Below are positions 50,840 to 62,885 of a DNA stretch of 64,000 nt, piece after piece (positions within the stretch are counted from its first letter, which is position 1; each line of letters opens with the position of its first letter). Location of the stretch: positions 18,587 through 82,586 of the forward strand of contig CAIOZW010000046.1 of assembly GCA_903862855.1 (NCBI GenBank), given 5' to 3'. The notes beneath the pieces were generated by a model, which worked only from the letters and a program-made list of their open reading frames with translations, was not told the DNA's origin and did not search any database. The stretch is from an uncultured Acidobacteriota bacterium. GTDB taxonomy: Bacteria > Acidobacteriota > Blastocatellia > RBC074. The translations under genes and the position numbers were made by a program.

Positions 50840-51459
50840 TTATGCGCTCTTAAAAATTCCTTCGAACCCGCCAAGTCTGGCCGTGTAAGGCTGGCGTGGG
50901 CCAGCGAGGATCAGTTCGTCAATATTGAAGTTTCAGGACAGGGGCCAGGCAGATCTAGAGGTGCCGGTTCCGATGATGACTTCATATGTTCTGCATAAGC
51001 TCTGAAACCGTGTCTGGTCTCCCAACTTACCAACAAACTGACTGGCATTACCACTTGGACATCACCCTCTACAAGTCAGGCTCGACATTTCCTGGTGTCA
51101 ATCACAAGCTCTAACGTGAATCATGAGCACCAATTTGACTCATGAGCATTAATGTAACAAATCAATGCTGCTAATGACCATTACTGTGCCTTACTATGGC
51201 TTAATGTAAACAATCATTAATGCAAGTAATAAGTATTATCGTAAATCACAAGGTGACAGGATAAACCATAATCAATGATATTTGAAGCTGTCAGAGAGAA
51301 AAGGTAAGCGAGGAGGAAAATTGTCTGCAGGAGAGGTTCAGACTGATCTGAAGTTGAGTCGGAACGGGAGTAGTGAAAGGAGCAGAGATGGGGATACAAG
51401 TCGCTTTTGTGCATCGCCCATCCCTTGACTCCGGGTTGTGAGATAACCAGCCCCAACTC

Positions 51460-51657
51460 TCAGGAGATGCTGTCATTGGCCGAGCTGAGCCGGGTATTGA
51501 TCTTGTTGAAGATTCCCGTGATGGTTGTCCCCATCGAGGTCAGAATGAAGATGGCCGCCGCACCGATCAGAACCAGCAGCAGCGAGTACTCGACAATATC
51601 CTGTCCATTCTCATCATTGATAAACGATATAAGCCGCGATTTATTCATTTGATCCAC
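51460..51657 (-). CDS. flp: Flp/Fap-family type IVb prepilin (orphan; no tad genes adjacent).
   Basis: Leader then G|QDIVEYSLLLVLIGAAAI: the Flp G/xxxxEY processing motif followed by a hydrophobic helix. 65 aa. Confidence 0.65.
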   Translation of the reverse strand: MDQMNKSRLISFINDENGQDIVEYSLLLVLIGAAAIFILTSMGTTITGIFNKINTRLSSANDSIS

Positions 51658-51935
51658 TCCCCTGCGATATTAATTGTCAGTAGTCAGCATCAATCTGGCG
51701 TTCGATCCGCACCCGAGCCGTCTCAACTACTGTGAGCCGTTGCCAAGCTCGGTAAATATGATTTGTGAGGGCCATCGAGGACTGACTCTCATTCGGCCAC
51801 GTAAAACGATCTCTTTGATTCAAAAAAGTACGGTTTTGATGCCACCACTTAATTAAAAAAGTGGCCTGGTAAATCAAGAATCACCTCGCCCTTATAGACT
51901 TGGAGACGGAGTGTGTGGGTGATTCTCGGCGAATG

Positions 51936-53567
51936 TCAAGACCGTTCATCACCATTTGACCGTTCCTCAATATTTGCAACAACTGGACCGAAGCCGCCAC
52001 CGCCCGGAGTCTCGATGCAGAGGCGAGTCCCAGCCTCCGCCTCGATCGAGAACTTGCCGGGGAGTGTCTGAAAAGATCGGCCCGGACGCCGGAGACGATT
52101 CAGCCCGCATTTGCCCGGTTCTCCGCCGGAGAGACCATAGGGTGCAAGCTGACGACGGTCGGAGAGGAGCGAGAGACGGGCAGGCGAGAGCAGTTCAATC
52201 TCGCGGATCAGTCCATCACCCCCCCGGTACCGGCCCAGGCCGCCCGAATGGCGGCGGATCTGATAGCGATGAACGAGGAGCGGATAGCTGTACTCGAGCG
52301 CCTCGACCGGGGTATTGAGCGAATTGGTCATATGGGAGTGGACAGCCGAGAGACCATGACTCGCGGGTCCAGCCCCCATTCCCCCGGCAAGCGTTTCGTA
52401 ATAGGCAAACTCTTGTCCAAGACGTGTGTCCCAACCCCCGATGGTCAGATTGTTCATGCTGCCCTGGGAGGCGGCTGGAATTCGATCCGGAAGAGCGCGG
52501 GAGAGGGCAAGTAGCAACACATCGACGATCCGCTGTGAGGTCTCGACATTTCCACCGGCGACTGCAGCCGGTGGAAGGGCGTTGACAATCGTTCCCGGTG
52601 GAGCAATCACTTCGAGCGGACTGAGCAGACCGGCACCGGCGGGGACATCAGCGTCGACCAGACAGCGGAAGACATAGAAGACCGCGGAGACGGTGATCGC
52701 CTCGACGGCATTGAGCGGTCCGGCCACCTGCGGCGAGCTTCCGGTAAAGTCGATGCGTGCCCGGTCGCCGGCGATGGTGATCCGCGCTGCGATGCGCACA
52801 GGCTGTAGACTCTCTCCATCATCATCGAGGTAGTCGATGGCCTCATAATCTCCATCAGGGATACTGGCGAGTGTCCGGCGCATGATGCGTTCGGCATAGG
52901 TGAAGAGATGGGCCGCATAGAGGCTGGTCTCGGCTCGTCCATACCGTTCGACGATCTCGAGAAGCCGCAGCTGTCCGACACGAATCGCCCCAAGCTGGGC
53001 GGCAAAGTCGCCTTCGCGCTCCTCCCGTCCCCGGACATTGGCCAGAAGAAGATCCCACAGATCCTGCACCAGTTCTCCACGCCGAACAAGGCGGACGGGA
53101 GGAATGCGCACTCCCTCCTGGTAGATCTCAGTTGCCGCCCCCATCGACCCCGGGGTCGCCCCGCCAATATCGGCGTGATGGGCACGGTTGGCCACATAGA
53201 AGAGAGGCTGGGTGGCTCCTTCGCTGTAGACTGGTGAAACCATGGTCACATCCGGAAGATGCGTCCCCCCGGCATAAGGGTCATTGAGGACGACGACGTC
53301 GCCGGGCGCGAACGGTCCACTCTCGATCGCCGCTCTGACAGACATGGGCATCGATCCAAGATGGACCGGCATGTGATCTCCCTGGGCAATCAGCCGACCT
53401 TCACGATCGAAGACCGCACAGGAGTAGTCACGCCGCTCCTTGATGTTGGGTGAAAAGGCAGTCCGACGCAGACTGACTCCCATCTCCTCGGCGACTGAGG
53501 TGAAGAGGGATCGAAAAATTTCCAGCTTGATCGAGTCCATTGGCGACGAATGCCTCATCCTGCTCAT
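51936..53567 (-). CDS. hyuB: Hydantoinase B / 5-oxoprolinase B-type subunit (HyuB family).
   Basis: HyuB family core (PDVTMVSPVY..., GGGGFG). Start at ATG 53567 forms an ATGA overlap with the upstream HEAT-repeat gene stop. Confidence 0.8.
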   Translation of the reverse strand: MSRMRHSSPMDSIKLEIFRSLFTSVAEEMGVSLRRTAFSPNIKERRDYSCAVFDREGRLIAQGDHMPVHLGSMPMSVRAAIESGPFAPGDVVVLNDPYAGGTHLPDVTMVSPVYSEGATQPLFYVANRAHHADIGGATPGSMGAATEIYQEGVRIPPVRLVRRGELVQDLWDLLLANVRGREEREGDFAAQLGAIRVGQLRLLEIVERYGRAETSLYAAHLFTYAERIMRRTLASIPDGDYEAIDYLDDDGESLQPVRIAARITIAGDRARIDFTGSSPQVAGPLNAVEAITVSAVFYVFRCLVDADVPAGAGLLSPLEVIAPPGTIVNALPPAAVAGGNVETSQRIVDVLLLALSRALPDRIPAASQGSMNNLTIGGWDTRLGQEFAYYETLAGGMGAGPASHGLSAVHSHMTNSLNTPVEALEYSYPLLVHRYQIRRHSGGLGRYRGGDGLIREIELLSPARLSLLSDRRQLAPYGLSGGEPGKCGLNRLRRPGRSFQTLPGKFSIEAEAGTRLCIETPGGGGFGPVVANIEERSNGDERS

Positions 53568-54460
53568 TTGACCAACGATTGAAGTATGAGTTGGGCCGCC
53601 TCGCGAACCCGCTGGTTCGCATCTGCGGCGGCAATCTCCTCGAGCATTGGTCGAACCTCCCCCTTCTTCCATTGAGCCAGCCACTCCATTGCCCTGATCC
53701 GCAGTTGTGGTGTTCCCTGTTTCCGGGCGATCCCGACCAGTTCGTGATATCCGTTCCGGGTCTTCTCGAGTTCGGCGACCGTTTCGATGACAATCGACTT
53801 CAACTGCGGCTCAGTGTAATCGGCAAAGGTGGTAAGAAAACCGATGCTCTTCCTCGAAAAACGGACATCGCGCAGCTGATTGACCATGAGGATCGCCTGA
53901 CAGCGAACACGGAGGTCATCACGATCAAGAATGCTCTGCATCCCGGGGTTGGCCATGAGGTTAAGAACGGTATTGCTGGCCTGGTAGACCTGGAGCGAGG
54001 CCAGGGTGCGTGTCAGAACAAATCGAACTCGCCAGTCCGGATCACGGGCAAGGCGGATGAGGGAGTCGACCAGTGGATCGGAGGCACTTTCGAGAGGCTG
54101 CGGCGGCGGGGCGACCCGCAGGTCGCGCAGCTGCCCGATCGCGACGATCGCTGCCCTGCGTATCTCCGGATCGTCGTCGGCGAGAACTCCTGTCACCGCC
54201 TCAAGTCCGGCCGGGTGGCAGAGTCGGGCGAGGCCATCGATCGCTTCGCGCCTCCGGAGTGGCGCCGTGGACTTCAACCCGGCCAAGGCCTCGGCAATCC
54301 GCTTCTCGGCTCCCGCGACCGGCCGACAAGGCTCAATGAGCGGCCGCGCGCGAATCTCAAGCTCCTCTGCGTCGTAACGCTGTGCGAGGACTGGCACGGA
54401 AAGGATCGATCCCCAGATCGTCAGCAGCAGGAGATATGCCGGGAGCTGCAGCTTTTTCAT
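53564..54460 (-). CDS. Secreted HEAT-repeat protein (PBS-lyase-like HEAT repeats).
   Basis: Signal peptide. Repeated DxxxxVRxxAxxALGxL HEAT-like units (DDDPEIRRAAIVAIGQL, DPDWRVRFVLTRTLASL). Confidence 0.6.
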   Translation of the reverse strand: MKKLQLPAYLLLLTIWGSILSVPVLAQRYDAEELEIRARPLIEPCRPVAGAEKRIAEALAGLKSTAPLRRREAIDGLARLCHPAGLEAVTGVLADDDPEIRRAAIVAIGQLRDLRVAPPPQPLESASDPLVDSLIRLARDPDWRVRFVLTRTLASLQVYQASNTVLNLMANPGMQSILDRDDLRVRCQAILMVNQLRDVRFSRKSIGFLTTFADYTEPQLKSIVIETVAELEKTRNGYHELVGIARKQGTPQLRIRAMEWLAQWKKGEVRPMLEEIAAADANQRVREAAQLILQSLVK

Positions 54461-54471
54461 GTCAACCTCAC

Positions 54472-55890
54472 TCAGACTGCCTTATCGGGATTTTGCGGGG
54501 TGAGTAGCTTGAGCGCCCGCGCATTATGCCCGAGGGCAATGACAATATCGCTGATGAATTTGTCACCCAGACTGCGCCGGAGCAATCCCCAGTCCATCCC
54601 GCGCAGCTTGGTGAGGCTTTCGTACATGGACTGGGCGCCGTAGGAGATGCGTCGCTCCTGCGCCGGCGTGAAGGTGACCAGCTCGTTGAGACGGGCGTAA
54701 TTGATGGCCTCGAACGCATGGCCGTACAGTTTGACGAGCGCCCGGGTCGTGAAGGCCTCGACCAGGTAGGATGCCGCACCGGCCGCCTCCTTCGTGTACT
54801 CATTCTGGATGGCCACGGCGTCACTCGTCAGCCGGTAGGTCAGAAGATCCATCATCTGCTTGACCCTTTGCGGCAGATCATTGTTACGGTAACCGTGCCT
54901 GAGTCCTGCCAGGAATCCATAGACCGAGTGAAGGCCGAAACAGCTATACTTCTTGATCTCGTTCCTGAACCCGGCCGGCGCCTCCCCGCCCTGCATGATC
55001 TGTTGCTCCCCAAGTGCGCAGGTGCTCTCATACTCTGCCAGACTCTGGTCGATGATCGCGGCAAGATCGATCTTTTCGTTCCAGGCATTTTTCCAGGAGG
55101 TCACGGCACCTGCCCCCGTCGCCGGATGGAGAACCGAGAAGGCGATCATGCCCCAGGGGAGATGCTCGTGAACAAGCTCTCCGCGCTGGTCTGCTACCTG
55201 GCCCGGCGCAACCTGCCGTTTATTCTGATAGCTCAGGTCATAGCGAAACTGGTCGTCGTCGAACCTGAAGAGATTCTGCGGATCACAACGAAAGAGCGCC
55301 TTTGCTCCGTCGACCACGTCACGCATGGTATAGCGTCGGTCACCAACCTGGACCGGCTGTTCGAGCGAGACTCCAGCCTCGAGGAAGGTCTTCAGAAAGC
55401 TGTTCTCGTGAACCTCCGCTTCACGCTTGAAGAAGACGTAACGGCGACCATTGACCTCACGATCGACCGCGTATCGTGTGCAGAGGTGCTCGACGCCATT
55501 CGTCCCATCGGCAAGCTGGAATCCCTTTCCAAAACCGCGAATGGCATGGATGATTGCCGATGGATTGTTCAGCTCGTGCGTGTAGAAGCGCAGCATATCA
55601 TCGCAGGCCGCCAGCGCATTCCCGGCATCAGCCGTTAGCAGCAGTGGGGGCAGATTTTTACCGGTTCCCGCAGCCGGTCGGGTCGGTGCAGTCGAGCCCT
55701 TCTTCTCATTTCGGGAGGCATACCATCCGGCAACCCCTGCTCCGACCAGCGCAACCGATCCGACCCCGGCCCAGATCAGCTGTCGCCGTCCCTGGTCTGC
55801 CTGATCGCCTGATCTGCGCCTCCCACGGTCACCAGCCTTTTTCACAACACCCTTTTGTCTGCCCTGTCCAATCTGCTTGTCACTCATCAT
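54472..55890 (-). CDS. Hypothetical membrane-anchored/periplasmic protein (basic N-tail, one TM or TAT-like RRQLIWAG segment). Unknown function, located inside the hydantoinase operon.
   Basis: 472 aa. No recognisable family. 11 nt from the downstream HEAT gene. Confidence 0.45.
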   Translation of the reverse strand: MMSDKQIGQGRQKGVVKKAGDRGRRRSGDQADQGRRQLIWAGVGSVALVGAGVAGWYASRNEKKGSTAPTRPAAGTGKNLPPLLLTADAGNALAACDDMLRFYTHELNNPSAIIHAIRGFGKGFQLADGTNGVEHLCTRYAVDREVNGRRYVFFKREAEVHENSFLKTFLEAGVSLEQPVQVGDRRYTMRDVVDGAKALFRCDPQNLFRFDDDQFRYDLSYQNKRQVAPGQVADQRGELVHEHLPWGMIAFSVLHPATGAGAVTSWKNAWNEKIDLAAIIDQSLAEYESTCALGEQQIMQGGEAPAGFRNEIKKYSCFGLHSVYGFLAGLRHGYRNNDLPQRVKQMMDLLTYRLTSDAVAIQNEYTKEAAGAASYLVEAFTTRALVKLYGHAFEAINYARLNELVTFTPAQERRISYGAQSMYESLTKLRGMDWGLLRRSLGDKFISDIVIALGHNARALKLLTPQNPDKAV

Positions 55891-56146
55891 CTTCCCCTGA
55901 TCCGATTATGAAACAAACTGTTACGATTTGCGCCTGCGCTGCGCGAGGTCGGGGATGCTCATCCGCTCGACCCGCCGGCAGCCTGACGCAGCTCGCCTGC
56001 ATCCTCGCCAGCCCTCTGATACGCCGCGGGTATCGACTCCGCGCCGGCCAGGCTCCGACCCGGCACAGATTACCACAACTCTCTCGCCCGAACACTGGTC
56101 AGGCAATGACCCGCCTGCTTCGCACGCCTCTCTCGCCTCAAACCTG

Positions 56147-58201
56147 TCATGACGCTGAACGCGAGATGATCAGGTTACCATATCGGTCGACAACCATCCC
56201 CCATCCGGTGGGAAGCAGAGTGGTCGATCCATACTCGACGATGATCGCCGGTCGACTGATCTCGTCTCCAGGATGGAGACTTGAACGATCATAGACCGGC
56301 AGAACGGTCGATCGGCGCCCAAGCCAGACGCGGGATGTTCCGGCCGGTTGGAGCCCTGAACCGGCGCGGCGCGGTCGCGCTGGCCGAAGTGGCGGCTTCT
56401 CGGTTATTCCAATGGCCCGCAGGCGCAGACTGACAATTTCGCTGCTTCTTGCCGGATTGGCATGACCGTAACGCTCCCGGTGGAGCCGGTGAAAAGTCTC
56501 CACCGGATTGCCGGCCGCCGGAACCAGCAGTTCATAGGACTGGCCCCGATAACGCATGGCCTGAAAGCGCTCCAGCCTCATCCGTGCCGAGTCGAACCCT
56601 TCCTGTCTCAATGCCTCAATGGCCTGCCTCTCCAGATCGGCAAAACCCTTCGCTGCAGCCAACTCGACCTCTCGGCCCACTCCCGATGCCTCCAGTGGCA
56701 GCATGACCGTCCGCGAAAAGTCCTTGACGACATCCGCCAGTAGAACGCCGAGCGCCGAAAATGCCCCCGGATCGGCGGGGATGAGGACCTGCGGAATACG
56801 GAGCGACTCGGCAAGGGCGACTGCGTGCAGCCCCCCACTCCCGCCAAATCCGACCAGCGTGAAGAGTCGCGGATCGTGTCCCCGTTCGACCGAGACCAGC
56901 CTGAGCGCCCTCTCCATGTTGGCATTGGCAATGCGCACCACACCCAGCGCCGCCTCGACCACCCCGATGCGACGCCCCGCAACCTCGCTCAAACGATCGG
57001 CCAGCCCCTGCAGCGCCTCCCGGGCTCTCGATTCATCAAGAACCATTCCACCATTGAGCAGCCCACCTCCGGCCAGCCTTCCCAGAATCAGATTGGCATC
57101 GGTCACGGTCGGCAGGCTCCCCCGACCATAGGCGGCCGGTCCCGGATCGGCCCCAGCCGACTCCGGGCCAACCCGCAGAGCCTGCCCCTCATCCACTCTC
57201 GCAATCGATCCGCCTCCTGCGCCGACCGTGTGAATATCGAGCACCGGTACGGCGACGGGGAGACCTGCGACCTGGGCTTCACTGGTCGTCGGGGCCTCTC
57301 CCAGACAGACCGCAACATCGGTCGATGTTCCACCCATATCGAATGTGATCAACCGGGAGATCCCGGCCAGCTTCGCGATCCTGGTCGCCGCCACCACGCC
57401 GCCTGCCGGACCGGAAAGGATCGTCCGGACCGGTTCCCGCGCCGCAACCTCGGCCGAAATAGATCCTCCCGACGACTGCATCACCCGAAGCCCTACTCTG
57501 CCCCCTCGACCATAATCGGTCAACCCATCTGCCAGTCGACCAAGGTATCGACTCATCCGTGGCGCGAGATAGGCATTGATCGCCAACGTCGAGACACGCT
57601 CATATTCACGATACTCGGGCAGTATTCGATTCGATACCGAGACAGGAATTCCAAGCTCACCGAGGCGCGTTGCAACCCGCTCCTCGTGCTCCGGATTGAC
57701 AAATGAGAAGAGCAGCGAGATGGCCACCGACTCGACGCGCGCCCGCCGCAATCTCTCCAGCAGACGCTCCAGTCCATCCTCTGACAGAGATCGATGTACC
57801 CTCCCATCCGCAAGGACCCTCTCCTGCACCCCAAACCTGAGCGGACCCGGTATCAGTGGATCTCGAACTCCCCGTGAATCTCTTCCCCGCCCCGTCAGAC
57901 TGTATGGCTCAGGCCGCGCCTGCCGACCGATCTCCAGCACATCCTCAAAGCCCTCCGTCGTTACCAGCGCGGTCCTGGCCCCCTTTCTCTCAAGCAGGGC
58001 ATTGGTCGCCACCGTCGTTCCGTGGACTACCTCTTTGAGTCCGGTTTCCACCCCACCACTGATCGCCGCAGCGATCCCGGCGAGGATCGCCCGCTCCGGC
58101 TCCTCCGGGGTCGAGGGGATCTTGAAGGCCCGCCGATGTCCTCCTTCCAGAACTACGAAATCGGTGAAGGTACCTCCCGTGTCGACCCCAATCCTTATCA
58201 T
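56147..58201 (-). CDS. hyuA: Hydantoinase A / 5-oxoprolinase A-type subunit (HyuA family).
   Basis: MIRIGVDTGGTFTDFVVL N-terminal ASKHA-fold motif. Start trimmed to ATG 58201, with GGAGAGG SD 7 nt upstream. Confidence 0.8.
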   Translation of the reverse strand: MIRIGVDTGGTFTDFVVLEGGHRRAFKIPSTPEEPERAILAGIAAAISGGVETGLKEVVHGTTVATNALLERKGARTALVTTEGFEDVLEIGRQARPEPYSLTGRGRDSRGVRDPLIPGPLRFGVQERVLADGRVHRSLSEDGLERLLERLRRARVESVAISLLFSFVNPEHEERVATRLGELGIPVSVSNRILPEYREYERVSTLAINAYLAPRMSRYLGRLADGLTDYGRGGRVGLRVMQSSGGSISAEVAAREPVRTILSGPAGGVVAATRIAKLAGISRLITFDMGGTSTDVAVCLGEAPTTSEAQVAGLPVAVPVLDIHTVGAGGGSIARVDEGQALRVGPESAGADPGPAAYGRGSLPTVTDANLILGRLAGGGLLNGGMVLDESRAREALQGLADRLSEVAGRRIGVVEAALGVVRIANANMERALRLVSVERGHDPRLFTLVGFGGSGGLHAVALAESLRIPQVLIPADPGAFSALGVLLADVVKDFSRTVMLPLEASGVGREVELAAAKGFADLERQAIEALRQEGFDSARMRLERFQAMRYRGQSYELLVPAAGNPVETFHRLHRERYGHANPARSSEIVSLRLRAIGITEKPPLRPARPRRAGSGLQPAGTSRVWLGRRSTVLPVYDRSSLHPGDEISRPAIIVEYGSTTLLPTGWGMVVDRYGNLIISRSAS

Positions 58202-58850: not shown

Positions 58851-59405
58851 ATGATTCAATACCACTCAACGATATTGGCCGGATTCACCGGTTTGTTGAT
58901 CGGCCTGAGCGCGCTTCAGGATGCAGGCCCTCGCCCTGCAGTCTTCACTACACCACCCCAGCGAATCGCGATTCGCTTCGCCGGTGAGCCGCCAGGCTAT
59001 CAGAATTACGATGGCCAGGTCACGCTGACCCTTCTCGAGGCAGGCAGTGATGATACTCTTCGTGCACTCCTGGTCCTGACTCTCCCTCCCGGAGAACGGC
59101 AACGTCTTGTGAAGCGTGGCCTCGAGCTGCCCGAAACGATCCATCGCGAGGAGCTGCGGCTGAACTGGCGCCGAGGAACATCCTGTCCGGACATCGATCT
59201 TGATCTGCCGGCGGTCAAATTTACCGGACAAGGCAGAGAGATGTCGACCGAACCAACCCGAGTGCGAATCGATGTCTCATTGCGAACGGTCGAGACCCTG
59301 CCCCAGCTGCTCTGCAGTTGGACGAGGCAGATCAACTCGCGCCGACCACGGCTGGGGATCGTCATGGCCATCAATCGTCTCCTCATCCCTGATGGTGGAG
59401 ACTGA
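58851..59405 (+). CDS. Secreted hypothetical protein, paralogue of the next gene.
   Basis: Signal peptide. Shares RP.V(F/Y)TT.P, the SDDT block and the C-terminal WTRQIN motif with 59615-60229. Confidence 0.5.
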   Translation: MIQYHSTILAGFTGLLIGLSALQDAGPRPAVFTTPPQRIAIRFAGEPPGYQNYDGQVTLTLLEAGSDDTLRALLVLTLPPGERQRLVKRGLELPETIHREELRLNWRRGTSCPDIDLDLPAVKFTGQGREMSTEPTRVRIDVSLRTVETLPQLLCSWTRQINSRRPRLGIVMAINRLLIPDGGD

Positions 59406-59614
59406 TCGATCCGGCTCCTGATCCCACCGGATCCATTATGGTGCATTTTGGGGTTTGAATTTCTTTCGTGGAATTCGTATCCTAAGTTTTTGTGGCAGGG
59501 CGGTAAGTTCTTTTGAGCTGACCGTCATCATTTGACAAGTGGATCATAAGAAACGCCACAGGCAATAAAATTCTGATTTCAACCAACGATTCGATTATGG
59601 AGGCAAGCTTAGAA

Positions 59615-60229
59615 ATGAAAATGTCAACCATCAGATTGACCGCCAGCGCCATCACCCTCGCGATTGGCCTTCTCGCCTTGACGGGTTTTGTCGCCCCGGC
59701 AATGGCCCAGGATGACCAACCACGCCCGGTCGCATACACTACCGCACCGAAGCTGGTCATCGCCAAGATCCGCAGTGGTGACGCCGATGTCTATGATGTG
59801 CGCGGCAAGGTGACCTTCACCGTCACGGCCGCCAACAGTGATGATACGATCGCCGGGACCCTCAACTATACGATCCCGGACGATGCGCGACAGAAAATAT
59901 CACAGTTGACCGGTCGTCCGCTCAACACCATCAAGTCGACGCTGACCCAGCCGGGTGTGGTGGCCAACTTCCAGAAAGGAACCGGTGCACCACTGATCCA
60001 TCTCGAGATCAGTCCATTCGACAGCGATGTCAACGGGGCCAAACTCCGTTTCAACCGCATCGTCGTCGATATTAACGGTCGCCAGGGTGGTCCGACGATC
60101 AGGAAGTACACCAATGAGGAGATCGAGGTTCTCTTCACGGTCTGGACTCGGCAGATCAACAACGGTCGCCAGGCGCGTGGCGTGATTGCCCGCCTCAATC
60201 GGGCAATCAACGGTGAGGCAGACCAGTAG
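59615..60229 (+). CDS. Secreted hypothetical protein, tandem paralogue of 58851-59405.
   Basis: Signal peptide MKMSTIRLTASAITLAIGLLALTGFVAPAMA. Conserved ...FTVWTRQINNGRQARGVIARLNRAI C-terminal block. GGAGG lies upstream of ATG 59615. Confidence 0.5.
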   Translation: MKMSTIRLTASAITLAIGLLALTGFVAPAMAQDDQPRPVAYTTAPKLVIAKIRSGDADVYDVRGKVTFTVTAANSDDTIAGTLNYTIPDDARQKISQLTGRPLNTIKSTLTQPGVVANFQKGTGAPLIHLEISPFDSDVNGAKLRFNRIVVDINGRQGGPTIRKYTNEEIEVLFTVWTRQINNGRQARGVIARLNRAINGEADQ

Positions 60230-60311: not shown

Positions 60312-61544
60312 ATGATCGATCCGCCTCATCTCTTTTACTTTCCAGCCCAGGAAAATCCCACTGCCGTGAAAGATCGACTCCAACATCGGGTGAAGAGTTG
60401 CACCTCGCTGATCTTGAGGGTGGCTCTTCTAATGGTCTGCGCTGGAGGTGGAGTCTGGAATCGAGCCCAGGCCCTCGGGAATGGAGTCGTCGCCGAGGTT
60501 CGGCCAGCAGGCCGGCAGCTGGTGCTCGAGGTGACCAATGAAGGGCGGAAAAGAGTTCTCCAGATTGTGCTCTCCCTTGGATCTGAGAGTGAAATGCGCG
60601 AAATCGGACAGGCAGTGCTGACGATCCTGCCCGATCAGTCACTGAGCCTTCTCCTCGACGGGCTGAGCTGGAATAGTGGGAGCGAAAATCGCTACGTTCT
60701 CGCCGTCTATGAGATCTCGGGGGTGAATGAGAGGACGGGACGGAGTCTCATCATCTACCGCCACGCCACTCTCCGCCAGAACAGCGACCCGGCGCCCGGC
60801 AACAGACTTGCACTCAATCCGATCCAGCGGAATGGCCGAACGACTGAATCCAGTGATCTCTCCATTACCCGCCCTGAAACATCCCCACAACCCATTCGGC
60901 AATTCGAGACCTTTGTTCCTCCACCCCCGGTCCAGCTCCAGGCACAACTTCTTTCCAACCCGGGAAATCCTGTCGGGGCGATCCTCTCGATCGATCTCCA
61001 GGCCGAACGCCCGATCGAGAAGGCAACTCTTGAGATCTCATACCGTAAATATCGCGACAGCAAACCCGTCAACATCGAGCGGAATCTGAATCTGGGCTTC
61101 GAGCTACCAGACAATTTTGCCGATGATGAGGGTGAGCCATCCGTCCACTACCGGCTTCTCGACCGTGATCGAAGCCTGCTGATCGAGGGTGATCTACCGG
61201 TGAGTGGACTGACTGAGGTAGAGCAGATCGGGCTGAAAGACCTGCAGACCGATCAGCCAAGCTACCGGCCGGGTGACCAGGTCAGGATCACCATCTTCAC
61301 CGAGGGAAGCACGCGTCACGGGATCAACATCGAGCTGGCGATCCGCAACGAGAAGGGTGAGTTCTTCCATCGGGATCAGCGGCTTATCCCCCCCAACGGC
61401 CAGGATCAGGCCCCAATCTTCATTTTTCTCATTCCGGCATCCATCAAGGGCCCTCTGACCATCGAATACCAGCTTCTCGACCCTCGCCAGGGTCGACTGC
61501 ACGATGCGGGACAACGGGAGCTGGTGATCCGCGAAGAGATGTAG
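60312..61544 (+). CDS. Hypothetical secreted protein with a C-terminal alpha-2-macroglobulin MG2-like domain.
   Basis: QTDQPSYRPGDQVRITIF resembles the MG-domain DKPIY(R/K)PG(E/Q)TV.F signature. N-terminal hydrophobic segment. Start uncertain. Confidence 0.4.
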   Translation: MIDPPHLFYFPAQENPTAVKDRLQHRVKSCTSLILRVALLMVCAGGGVWNRAQALGNGVVAEVRPAGRQLVLEVTNEGRKRVLQIVLSLGSESEMREIGQAVLTILPDQSLSLLLDGLSWNSGSENRYVLAVYEISGVNERTGRSLIIYRHATLRQNSDPAPGNRLALNPIQRNGRTTESSDLSITRPETSPQPIRQFETFVPPPPVQLQAQLLSNPGNPVGAILSIDLQAERPIEKATLEISYRKYRDSKPVNIERNLNLGFELPDNFADDEGEPSVHYRLLDRDRSLLIEGDLPVSGLTEVEQIGLKDLQTDQPSYRPGDQVRITIFTEGSTRHGINIELAIRNEKGEFFHRDQRLIPPNGQDQAPIFIFLIPASIKGPLTIEYQLLDPRQGRLHDAGQRELVIREEM

Positions 61545-61859
61545 CCTCCCGAGCCATGGCGGGTCGGGAACACTGTTCGATCAACTTTATTTGACTCCCC
61601 GCAGTGAGTCGACAAAATTGACCCGACCGTGTGCTACAATGCCTTTGCAGTTATCCCCGAGCCATCGATGCCCATCCTGCTGGTCCAACCCGGCGGGAGC
61701 CGCTTCCAGACAGGCTTCTCTGCTCACCGGGCTCCCCAAGTCCGGCCGATCAGGGAGAATGGACGGCGCAGTTATTCTCCGATGACCCGGAGGCTTTTTA
61801 CGGCCTCCGCATTTGAAGATCGAGCCAACCTTGAGTGGCCCAGTTCGCAGGAGATTGAG

Positions 61860-62885
61860 ATGGTTTCCAAACAGTACAAGATGACCGACCGGTTGAGGGT
61901 GCTCGTGTCGTCGGCGTTGCTTGTGGTCACGCTCTGCGGAGGTGTGATTCTTGCCCAGTCACCTCCCGCCACACCTCCGAAGACTCAGCCGGGCCAGCAG
62001 AGTCAGTCCCCATCGAAGGTCGAAGGTCGATCTGATGAGCGGATCCGCCTCGATACCGACATCGTCACCCTGACCGTGACGGTAACCGATCCATACAATC
62101 GTCTCGTCACCGGGCTCGATCGCCAGCATTTTGAAGTCTTTGAGGACAAGGTCAAGCAGTCGATCGAGTTCTTCAGTGACGATGATGTCCCGGTCAGCCT
62201 GGGAATCGTCTTCGATGTCTCGGGAAGCATGAAGGGCAAGATGGATCGCGCACGGGAATCGCTTCGGGCATTCATCGAGACCAGCCACCGCGAAGACGAC
62301 TTTTTTCTCGTCGGCTTCAATCAACGTGCCAATCTGATTGCGGAATTCTCTGATGGCGATACCCTCGCCAACAAATTGACCCTCATCGACGCAAAGGGGC
62401 AGACGGCACTCTACGATGCATCCTATCTCGGCATCGAGAAGGTCAAGCAGGGACGCCATTCGAAACGAGCCCTTCTATTGATCTCGGATGGTCAGGACAA
62501 TTCTTCCCGTTATACCTATGGCGAATTGCGGAAGCTGCTCCGCGAAGCGGGTGTCCAGATCTACTCTATTGGTATCGTCGAGATGGGTGGATCTGCCGGT
62601 GGAACGCTTGACATGCAGGGACAGGCAATTCTGGAAGAGATTGCGCAGGTAACGGGCGGAAAGGCCTTCTTCCCGCGCTCAGCTGCCGAACTTGAGGATG
62701 CAACGACCCGTATCGCCCTCGAATTGCGCCACCAGTACAGCATTGGCTACTCGCCAACCAATGTCAATCGTGACGGTCAGTGGCACAAGATCAAGGTGCA
62801 GGTAAAACCCCCACGCGGCCTGCCGAGTCTGAAGGTCCAGCACAAAGAGGGCTATTATGCAATCACGCGCAAGGCTGGACCATAA
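61860..62885 (+). CDS. Secreted von Willebrand factor A (VWA) domain protein.
   Basis: Signal peptide. VWA/MIDAS motif DVSGSM and GQTALYDA ... LISDGQDNSS. Start at ATG 61860, with AGGAG 8 nt upstream. Confidence 0.7.
   Translation: MVSKQYKMTDRLRVLVSSALLVVTLCGGVILAQSPPATPPKTQPGQQSQSPSKVEGRSDERIRLDTDIVTLTVTVTDPYNRLVTGLDRQHFEVFEDKVKQSIEFFSDDDVPVSLGIVFDVSGSMKGKMDRARESLRAFIETSHREDDFFLVGFNQRANLIAEFSDGDTLANKLTLIDAKGQTALYDASYLGIEKVKQGRHSKRALLLISDGQDNSSRYTYGELRKLLREAGVQIYSIGIVEMGGSAGGTLDMQGQAILEEIAQVTGGKAFFPRSAAELEDATTRIALELRHQYSIGYSPTNVNRDGQWHKIKVQVKPPRGLPSLKVQHKEGYYAITRKAGP

Follow-up and report, generated by a model that had tools for sequence, protein, structure and literature searches.

In a 64,000-nucleotide stretch of DNA from an uncultured Acidobacteriota bacterium of the class Blastocatellia (lineage RBC074; contig CAIOZW010000046.1, positions 18,587 to 82,586; hereafter the window), the genes for the two subunits of a hydantoinase/oxoprolinase-family enzyme, hyuA and hyuB, are separated by a gene for a 472-residue protein of an unnamed family, for which we use the working name X472, and a gene for a HEAT-repeat protein. 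All four open reading frames (ORFs) are on the minus strand, arranged head to tail in the order hyuA, X472, HEAT, hyuB, at the coordinates assigned to them in a preliminary description of this DNA (Table 1). We favour, with moderate confidence, the reading that this is a nested operon, in which two functionally separate modules share one transcription unit and are held together by transcriptional dependence. The first module would consist of HyuA and HyuB, as the two subunits of an intact cytoplasmic hydrolase that acts on lactams or cyclic amides and depends on ATP. The second would be an extracytoplasmic pair, in which X472, held by a twin-arginine translocation (Tat) signal-anchor, is predicted to present a divergent periplasmic toroid with a polar His/Cys-rich pocket and is accompanied by the Sec-exported HEAT protein. 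In an ancestor of the Blastocatellia, a pre-existing X472-HEAT pair would have become lodged between a once-adjacent hyuA and hyuB.

Conservation of the arrangement was assessed by a synteny scan of one genome per GTDB species, giving 54 loci, together with three close relatives. The counts rest on tblastn hits and ORF logic rather than on curated annotation, and loci with X472 at least 49% identical were taken as primary-type; the best X472 identity among the GTDB representatives was 62%, the species of the window lying outside that set. HEAT comes after X472 in 41 of 45 primary loci and hyuB follows in 31 of 35, while hyuA is directly ahead of X472 in 21 of 39 and lies about 5 kb upstream, with other genes between, in a further two. 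It had been proposed beforehand that the four-gene order be looked for in related genomes, and among the 29 primary loci with both flanks covered it is present in full in 16, with X472-HEAT-hyuB without an adjacent hyuA in another 10. A wider order, running from the gene for a VWA-domain protein through o184 to hyuA-X472-HEAT-hyuB-mreBCD-pbp2-rodA, is kept in many loci. Because over 20 assemblies, independent of one another and with proteins 50-83% identical, share the same order, the arrangement is neither chance nor an assembly artefact. Several of the records (L004, L014-L016, L018, L022, L025-L027, L029, L031, L035 and L048) are titled 'uncultured Heliobacteriaceae' or 'Heliomicrobium'; these titles look wrong, as the proteins and the synteny fit Acidobacteriota.

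An X472 tree, built by simple neighbour-joining and rooted with a distant branch of the family, places the four-gene state at the base of the primary clade and also at scattered points throughout it. As judged from these sequences, the X472-HEAT insertion is ancient and has been inherited across the class Blastocatellia. The separation of hyuA occurs in at least six separate places on the same tree, making the hyuA/X472 junction a repeated break point of the cluster in evolution, and X472-HEAT-hyuB persists through several independent relocations, moving to new contexts as a unit. Every link in the cluster is nonetheless breakable, as is evident from the exceptions: in one locus X472-HEAT remains, flanked by the o184 cluster and mreB, but hyuA and hyuB are both gone (L017), one has hyuA-X472-hyuB without HEAT, the hyuA stop overlapping the X472 start (L012), one is without hyuB (L003), and in one clade X472 stands alone ahead of xseA and xseB (L027, L032 and L034). 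A further locus (L005, 9436-10207) has a VapBC-like antitoxin/PIN pair between X472 and HEAT, and single small ORFs occupy the same position in L038 (9318-9734) and L003 (9510-9962), so strict translational coupling is not needed by the pair.

The state before the insertion was approached through a metagenome scan with a HyuA profile, which gave 80 outgroup loci at 44-61% HyuA identity. X472 or HEAT was found in none of the 80. In 46 of them the sequence runs on for 2.3 kb or more downstream, and of these 36 have hyuB no more than 600 nt from hyuA, three have it further downstream and seven lack it; in eukaryotic oxoprolinase and in N-methylhydantoinase (7hk5) the two subunits are fused, which contrasts with the splitting of the genes by exported-protein genes in the window. 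On account of the adjacent state in 36 of 46 loci and the lack of X472 and HEAT in all 80, these comparisons indicate that hyuA-hyuB adjacency is the ancestral and usual state, as had been assumed in the preliminary description, and that the X472-HEAT interruption is a feature of the Blastocatellia. The suggestion made there that the operon had been invaded by unrelated genes is thus upheld in kind and not as to age, the event being ancient and basal. Two of the outgroup loci with a more distant hyuB have one gene between, encoding a 424-residue unknown protein in L092 (9026-10300) and a 408-residue aspartokinase-like protein in L123 (5139-6365), and therefore interruption of hyuA-hyuB is not confined to Blastocatellia. 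In two other loci of the metagenome scan (L070, 1356-3527; L106, 6968-9082) hyuA is solitary: it adjoins a divergent VWA gene, and no hyuB was seen over 7 kb. These may be copies left behind after X472-HEAT-hyuB moved, on contigs that are untied to particular genomes.

The persistent linkage of X472, HEAT and hyuB, as against the frequent unlinking of hyuA, could be accounted for by a transcriptional dependence of hyuB. As the last gene, behind short spacers, hyuB probably relies on readthrough from X472-HEAT, and its expression would be lost if it were cut off, whereas hyuA, as the first gene and ahead of the longest and most variable spacer, would be free to leave if X472 has or gains a promoter. 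The spacing is operon-like, with 11 nt and 23 nt in the window and mostly less than 150 nt in relatives. The 11-nt gap between X472 and HEAT, reported earlier, is as described, with a GAGG 7 nt ahead of the HEAT ATG. The second value depends on the start of hyuB, which had been taken to overlap the HEAT stop in an ATGA. The overlap does exist in the sequence, at 53564-53567, but it is probably not where hyuB starts: in the closest relative (L060) the ATG equivalent to window position 53567 is followed by an in-frame TAG, and all relatives share a conserved start, ATGGACTCG (MDSIKLE), at window position 53540, for which reasons we prefer 53540, which has a GAGG 11 nt ahead of it. The idea that HEAT and hyuB are translationally coupled through the ATGA was given up accordingly. 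The spacer ahead of hyuB in relatives ranges from 0 to about 280 nt and is typically about 65 nt, and that between hyuA and X472 varies between a 4-nt overlap and about 360 nt. In the window the latter had been noted as a 256-nt gap without a convincing ORF, and it proved unremarkable: it holds no ORF of note and no Rfam match at E<=1, has a fold z-score of -0.17 and is conserved in sequence with the closest relative only, and a riboswitch or other structured RNA in it was rejected on these grounds. It possibly contains an internal promoter. Consensus scans for internal terminators and promoters, which are uninformative for Acidobacteria, did not exceed chance and gave no site in this spacer; terminator-like sites numbered 6 against 5.9 expected in shuffled sequence.

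Both subunits of the proposed hydrolase look functional in translation, with domains, ATP motifs and metal site kept. HyuA has full-length Pfam coverage (PF05378 Hydant_A_N, 1.1e-53; PF01968 Hydantoinase_A, 8.8e-95; PF19278 Hydant_A_C, 1.3e-09), and HyuB matches PF02538 Hydantoinase_B (7.2e-211) across positions 1-518 of the 519 in the profile, which places them in the hydantoinase/oxoprolinase family as alpha and beta subunit, respectively. The motifs DTGGTFTD, DMGGTS and GADPGP of HyuA agree with the ASKHA phosphate-1, phosphate-2 and adenosine motifs listed in PMC8453981, and an Asp-His-Asp-His set in HyuB aligns with the metal ligands Asp41, His99, Asp102 and His124 of CapB given in the same source. 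Among solved structures, HyuB is closest to N-methylhydantoinase 7hk5 (E 5.5e-88) and caprolactamase CapB 6yra_B (1.2e-77), and the two-subunit domain architecture, the ATP motifs and the Asp-His-Asp-His site are common to CapAB (6yra), N-methylhydantoinase, the bacterial 5-oxoprolinase OplAB and HyuAB. HyuA is 59-64% identical to its Blastocatellia orthologues, and identity of the Hyu proteins across the class is 59-79%. Neither HyuA nor HyuB has an export-type N-terminus. The best NCBIfam match of HyuA is to the caprolactamase alpha subunit, at 483.4 bits against a cut-off of 1000, and HyuB, for which caprolactamase is again the nearest, scores 314.6 bits against the beta subunit, also under its 1000-bit equivalog cut-off, so that neither protein is assigned to NF050156/NF050157. 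Scores against the acetophenone and acetone carboxylase families (240, 178 and 85 bits, cut-offs 1250-1500) place the proteins outside these as well; HyuB matches acetone carboxylase alpha at only 2.1e-10, and a Pfam scan of the cluster and neighbouring ORFs gave no carboxylase gamma-like gene. We leave the substrate of HyuAB unassigned because of these scores far under the caprolactamase and acetophenone carboxylase equivalog cut-offs, 5-oxoproline or another small lactam being plausible.

X472 belongs to a small family: only 206 clusters reached E<=0.001 when 1.84 billion representative proteins were searched with its profile, and its named matches are all 'hypothetical protein' entries from Acidobacteriota/Blastocatellia and one from Krumholzibacteriia. 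Within the primary clade the mean column identity is 63%. Its N-terminus, GRRQLIWAGVGSVALVGAGVAG, has a basic region, the motif GRRQLIW and then a Gly/Ala-rich hydrophobic stretch, with R35 and R36 of the nearly invariant RR motif at least 90% conserved. This agrees with a Tat signal-anchor as recognised from sequence, that is, an (S/T)RRxF(L/I)-type motif followed by a mildly hydrophobic stretch. Among 68 members of the family, the sole Pfam matches to recur were to the Rieske Tat-signal (PF10399, 20 members), the PetC anchor (PF25471, 12) and TAT_signal (PF10518, 2), the X472 of the window itself falling short of E<=1 for all three, and weak matches of the X472 profile to PDB sequences are confined to Rieske and HiPIP signal segments. 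The RRxF(I/L) motif and the Gly/Ala-rich hydrophobic stretch are shared with Rieske-type Tat signal-anchor proteins, but the likeness stops at the targeting segment, the globular domain being unrelated. X472 is thus predicted to be exported, inserted by Tat and anchored at its N-terminus. The HEAT protein has a Sec-like N-terminal signal in the window, as do 47 of 48 homologues, and the earlier labels of a membrane/periplasmic protein and a secreted HEAT-repeat protein have held up.

Profile and structure searches with the 472-residue protein, also proposed at the outset, had different outcomes: it has no Pfam or NCBIfam match, and it has a recognisable predicted fold. A confident AlphaFold2 model built from the 68-sequence alignment (predicted local distance difference test, pLDDT, 87.5; predicted template modelling score, pTM, 0.83) has residues 1-67 disordered or membrane-embedded, then a disordered linker that ends near residue 87, and 12 main helices with three small hairpins in residues 88-461. 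In this model the helices form inner and outer rings and the top structural matches are all toroids, consistent with an (alpha/alpha)6 toroid; a Foldseek search of the PDB with the model returned no significant match. The residues invariant in both paralogous clades of X472 lie on the even-numbered helices, with one His per helix: H115 and R118 on helix H2, E159, H161 and E171 on H4 or just ahead of it, H243 and W246 on H6, C317 and H321 on H8, H391 and E394 on H10, and H455 and R458 on H12. The distant branch, too, keeps H115, H161, C317, H321, R353, H391, E394 and H455 without exception. The pattern is as expected if, in the modelled fold, these residues line a central barrel pocket. X472 does not belong to the toroid glycoside hydrolase families GH105, GH88, GH76 or GH8, and it differs from periplasmic toroid glycanases and lyases in having no Pfam match and only 5-10% identity. 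The metal-dependent alpha/alpha barrels of LanC-like cyclases and the protein prenyltransferase beta subunit are likewise distinct, with no LANC_like or Prenyltrans Pfam match in the 68 members; moreover, those proteins are cytoplasmic, unlike X472, which is predicted to be exported.

The HEAT protein is a clear member of its family (PF13646 HEAT_2, 69.8 bits against a cut-off of 27.7, 2.4e-19, in three stretches), its NCBIfam scores for the NblB and CpcF equivalogs being far under the cut-offs. That X472 and HEAT form a pair independent of hyu genes is apparent from a second, paralogous X472 of about 40% identity present in the same metagenome-assembled genomes as the primary copy. All five such loci with enough sequence have a paralogous HEAT gene (about 34% identity) next after this X472, from which it follows that X472-HEAT has been duplicated and works as a pair, and all five are without hyu genes, their unrelated neighbours being LOG, ATE (arginyl-transferase), a GFO oxidoreductase and sucD. 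The distant branch of X472, at 27-29% identity, was examined in six distinct loci. None of the six has hydantoinase genes nearby, and five have envelope-glycan genes within 6 kb, including EpsH exosortase, GT2/GT4, PMT_2, Polysacc_synt, Bac_transf and BNR propellers; a HEAT_2 gene lies three genes downstream of the X472 relative in one. In this branch the X472-like gene is followed at once, often with overlapping stop and start, by a gene for a protein of 148-177 residues and then by one for an unknown protein of 330-530 residues, with BNR or PMT_2 genes nearby, and these two may be a different conserved partner set. A PADLOC search gave no matches for HyuA, X472 or HyuB and only a generic HEAT-ARM match for HEAT (4.6e-06, 48 residues), and a role in anti-phage defence was set aside for want of such support.

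The fold of X472, together with the neighbourhoods of its distant relatives, suggests by analogy an envelope-glycan-related role. Periplasmic (alpha/alpha) toroid glycanases and lyases pair with alpha-solenoid scaffolds in exopolysaccharide operons, as in BcsZ (GH8) with the tetratricopeptide-repeat protein BcsC, and AlgL with AlgK. On this toroid/solenoid analogy, and on the distant neighbourhoods, the X472-HEAT module probably binds or processes envelope glycan. The X472 cluster differs from the BcsZ/BcsC and AlgL/AlgK systems in being without a polysaccharide synthase or exporter, and X472 differs from BcsZ and AlgL in its conserved residues, which are mainly His, Cys and Arg, and in its Tat signal-anchor.

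Downstream, hyuB is followed by a mini-ORF that resembles Flp pilin genes and by mreB, mreC and mreD. The mini-ORF falls within the hyuB-mreB spacer, a 1.1-kb stretch of low G+C content (45-47%, against 55-65% around it). On the other side, the divergent block of two secreted paralogues, the 410-residue protein and the VWA-domain protein is kept upstream of hyuA in most Blastocatellia loci.

Table 1. Features of the hyu cluster and its surroundings in the window, and small proteins encoded after distant X472 relatives in other loci (labelled by locus).
Feature	Position	Strand	Description
hyuA	56147-58201	minus	684 aa (amino acids); ATP-binding (ASKHA-type) alpha subunit of a hydantoinase/oxoprolinase-family lactam hydrolase
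hyuA/X472 spacer	55891-56146	minus	256 nt; ordinary, variable intergenic region
X472	54472-55890	minus	472 aa; unnamed family; Tat-type signal-anchor, disordered linker, predicted (alpha/alpha)6 toroid
HEAT-repeat gene	53564-54460	minus	298 aa; secreted alpha-solenoid protein, putative X472 partner
hyuB	51936-53567 (543 aa), or likely true start 53540 (534 aa)	minus	metal-binding beta subunit
Flp/Fap pilin-like ORF	51460-51648	minus	62 aa, beginning MNKSRLISFINDENGQDIVEYSLLLVLIG; PF04964 E 1.3e-07, 31.8 bits, just under the 32.2 cut-off
hyuB-mreB spacer	50840-51935		contains the Flp/Fap pilin-like ORF
Two paralogous small secreted proteins	58851-59405, 59597-60229	plus	no Pfam family
410-aa protein and VWA-domain protein	60312-61544, 61629-62885	divergent from hyuA	after the two paralogous secreted proteins
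Small protein after distant X472	L055 7236-7760; L057 7143-7589; L064 7119-7607; L065 7239-7772		no Pfam family

Several findings weigh against the nested operon. A sigma-70-like site, as might mark an internal promoter, was not found in the hyuA/X472 spacer by a consensus scan that is uninformative for Acidobacteria; the His/Cys set of X472 is unlike the carboxylate pairs of toroid glycoside hydrolases and could instead form a metal or cofactor site; and the persistence of X472-HEAT-hyuB could equally mean a functional link of the exported pair with HyuB. Such a link might take the form of one pathway in two compartments, in which X472 and HEAT free or capture an envelope- or polymer-derived lactam or cyclic amide outside the membrane and HyuAB, using ATP, opens its ring in the cytoplasm after uptake, the linkage of the genes being selected. 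The four-gene order is ancestral and widespread, X472-HEAT-hyuB has stayed together and travelled as a unit through the six or more independent separations of hyuA, hyuB follows HEAT in 30 of 35 loci, and X472 is strongly conserved in the primary clade; these points speak for such a pathway, above all the persistence of X472-HEAT-hyuB. We nevertheless think it improbable, as no conserved transporter gene is present in the cluster, paralogous and distant X472 genes are never beside hyu genes, and hyuA, needed for the ATP step, is the gene most often unlinked; the loci that have X472-HEAT without hyuA and hyuB, that lack HEAT, or that have X472 alone by xseA/xseB, and the fact that X472 and HEAT are parted in some genomes by unrelated cassettes, the VapBC-like pair among them, also speak against it. 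The more specific proposal of a true functional system of X472, HEAT and HyuB, with or without HyuA, in which a ring of invariant His residues, one on each inner helix of the Tat-anchored toroid, forms a metal or cofactor site that with the HEAT partner handles an envelope-derived cyclic amide or lactam, close to the MreBCD/PBP2/RodA genes, and HyuAB recycles the product, we consider doubtful. If true, it would be a new, Blastocatellia-specific route of envelope turnover or salvage and would give the unnamed X472 family its first function.

The remaining readings concern the interpretation first offered for this locus, namely a variant hydantoinase/carboxylase-type complex with periplasm-facing parts, and the origin of the insertion. 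Members of the hydantoinase/oxoprolinase family with accessory subunits are known, as in the acetone and acetophenone carboxylases (PMC8453981, PMC5214803), and the position of X472 and HEAT between both subunit genes, with short spacers, would suit additional subunits of a HyuAB holo-enzyme. The conserved export signals are, however, on X472 and HEAT and are lacking on HyuA and HyuB, and a physical complex of the Hyu proteins with the pair is very unlikely because of these differing compartments. Each also occurs apart from the other, the pair being found without Hyu (in the five paralogous loci, in L017 and, for X472, in the six distant loci) and Hyu without the pair, and there is no likeness to gamma or epsilon subunits, the NCBIfam matches being only to HyuA/B and to generic HEAT; the proposed variant complex was therefore not sustained. 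A recent insertion, mobile-element invasion or assembly chimera private to this genome might be read into the slightly lower G+C content within the HEAT gene (0.55 at positions 53500-53999, flanked by 0.60-0.65) and into the fact that small cassettes do enter this cluster in some relatives. Such an origin is scarcely credible: the synteny data refute it, the same order being found in so many independent assemblies and the four-gene state being basal on the X472 tree, and the ORFs showed no sign of a transposase or of repeats. A search of the literature for oxoprolinase in Blastocatellia, or for HEAT proteins together with hydantoinase, found nothing relevant.

Read as a nested operon, the locus would be a clean and datable case in which the subunit genes of one enzyme were split by an unrelated exported module and kept split across a class. 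The arrangement is no evidence for a new type of hydantoinase complex, and cautions against equating membership of an operon with membership of a complex. It also suggests a simple rule, by which transcriptional dependence may hold the 3' gene of an interrupted operon in place and the 5' gene can depart. In addition, it brings out an unnamed, strongly conserved family with a predicted Tat anchor, toroid fold and His/Cys pocket, which belongs to the core genes of the Blastocatellia, a class common in soil.

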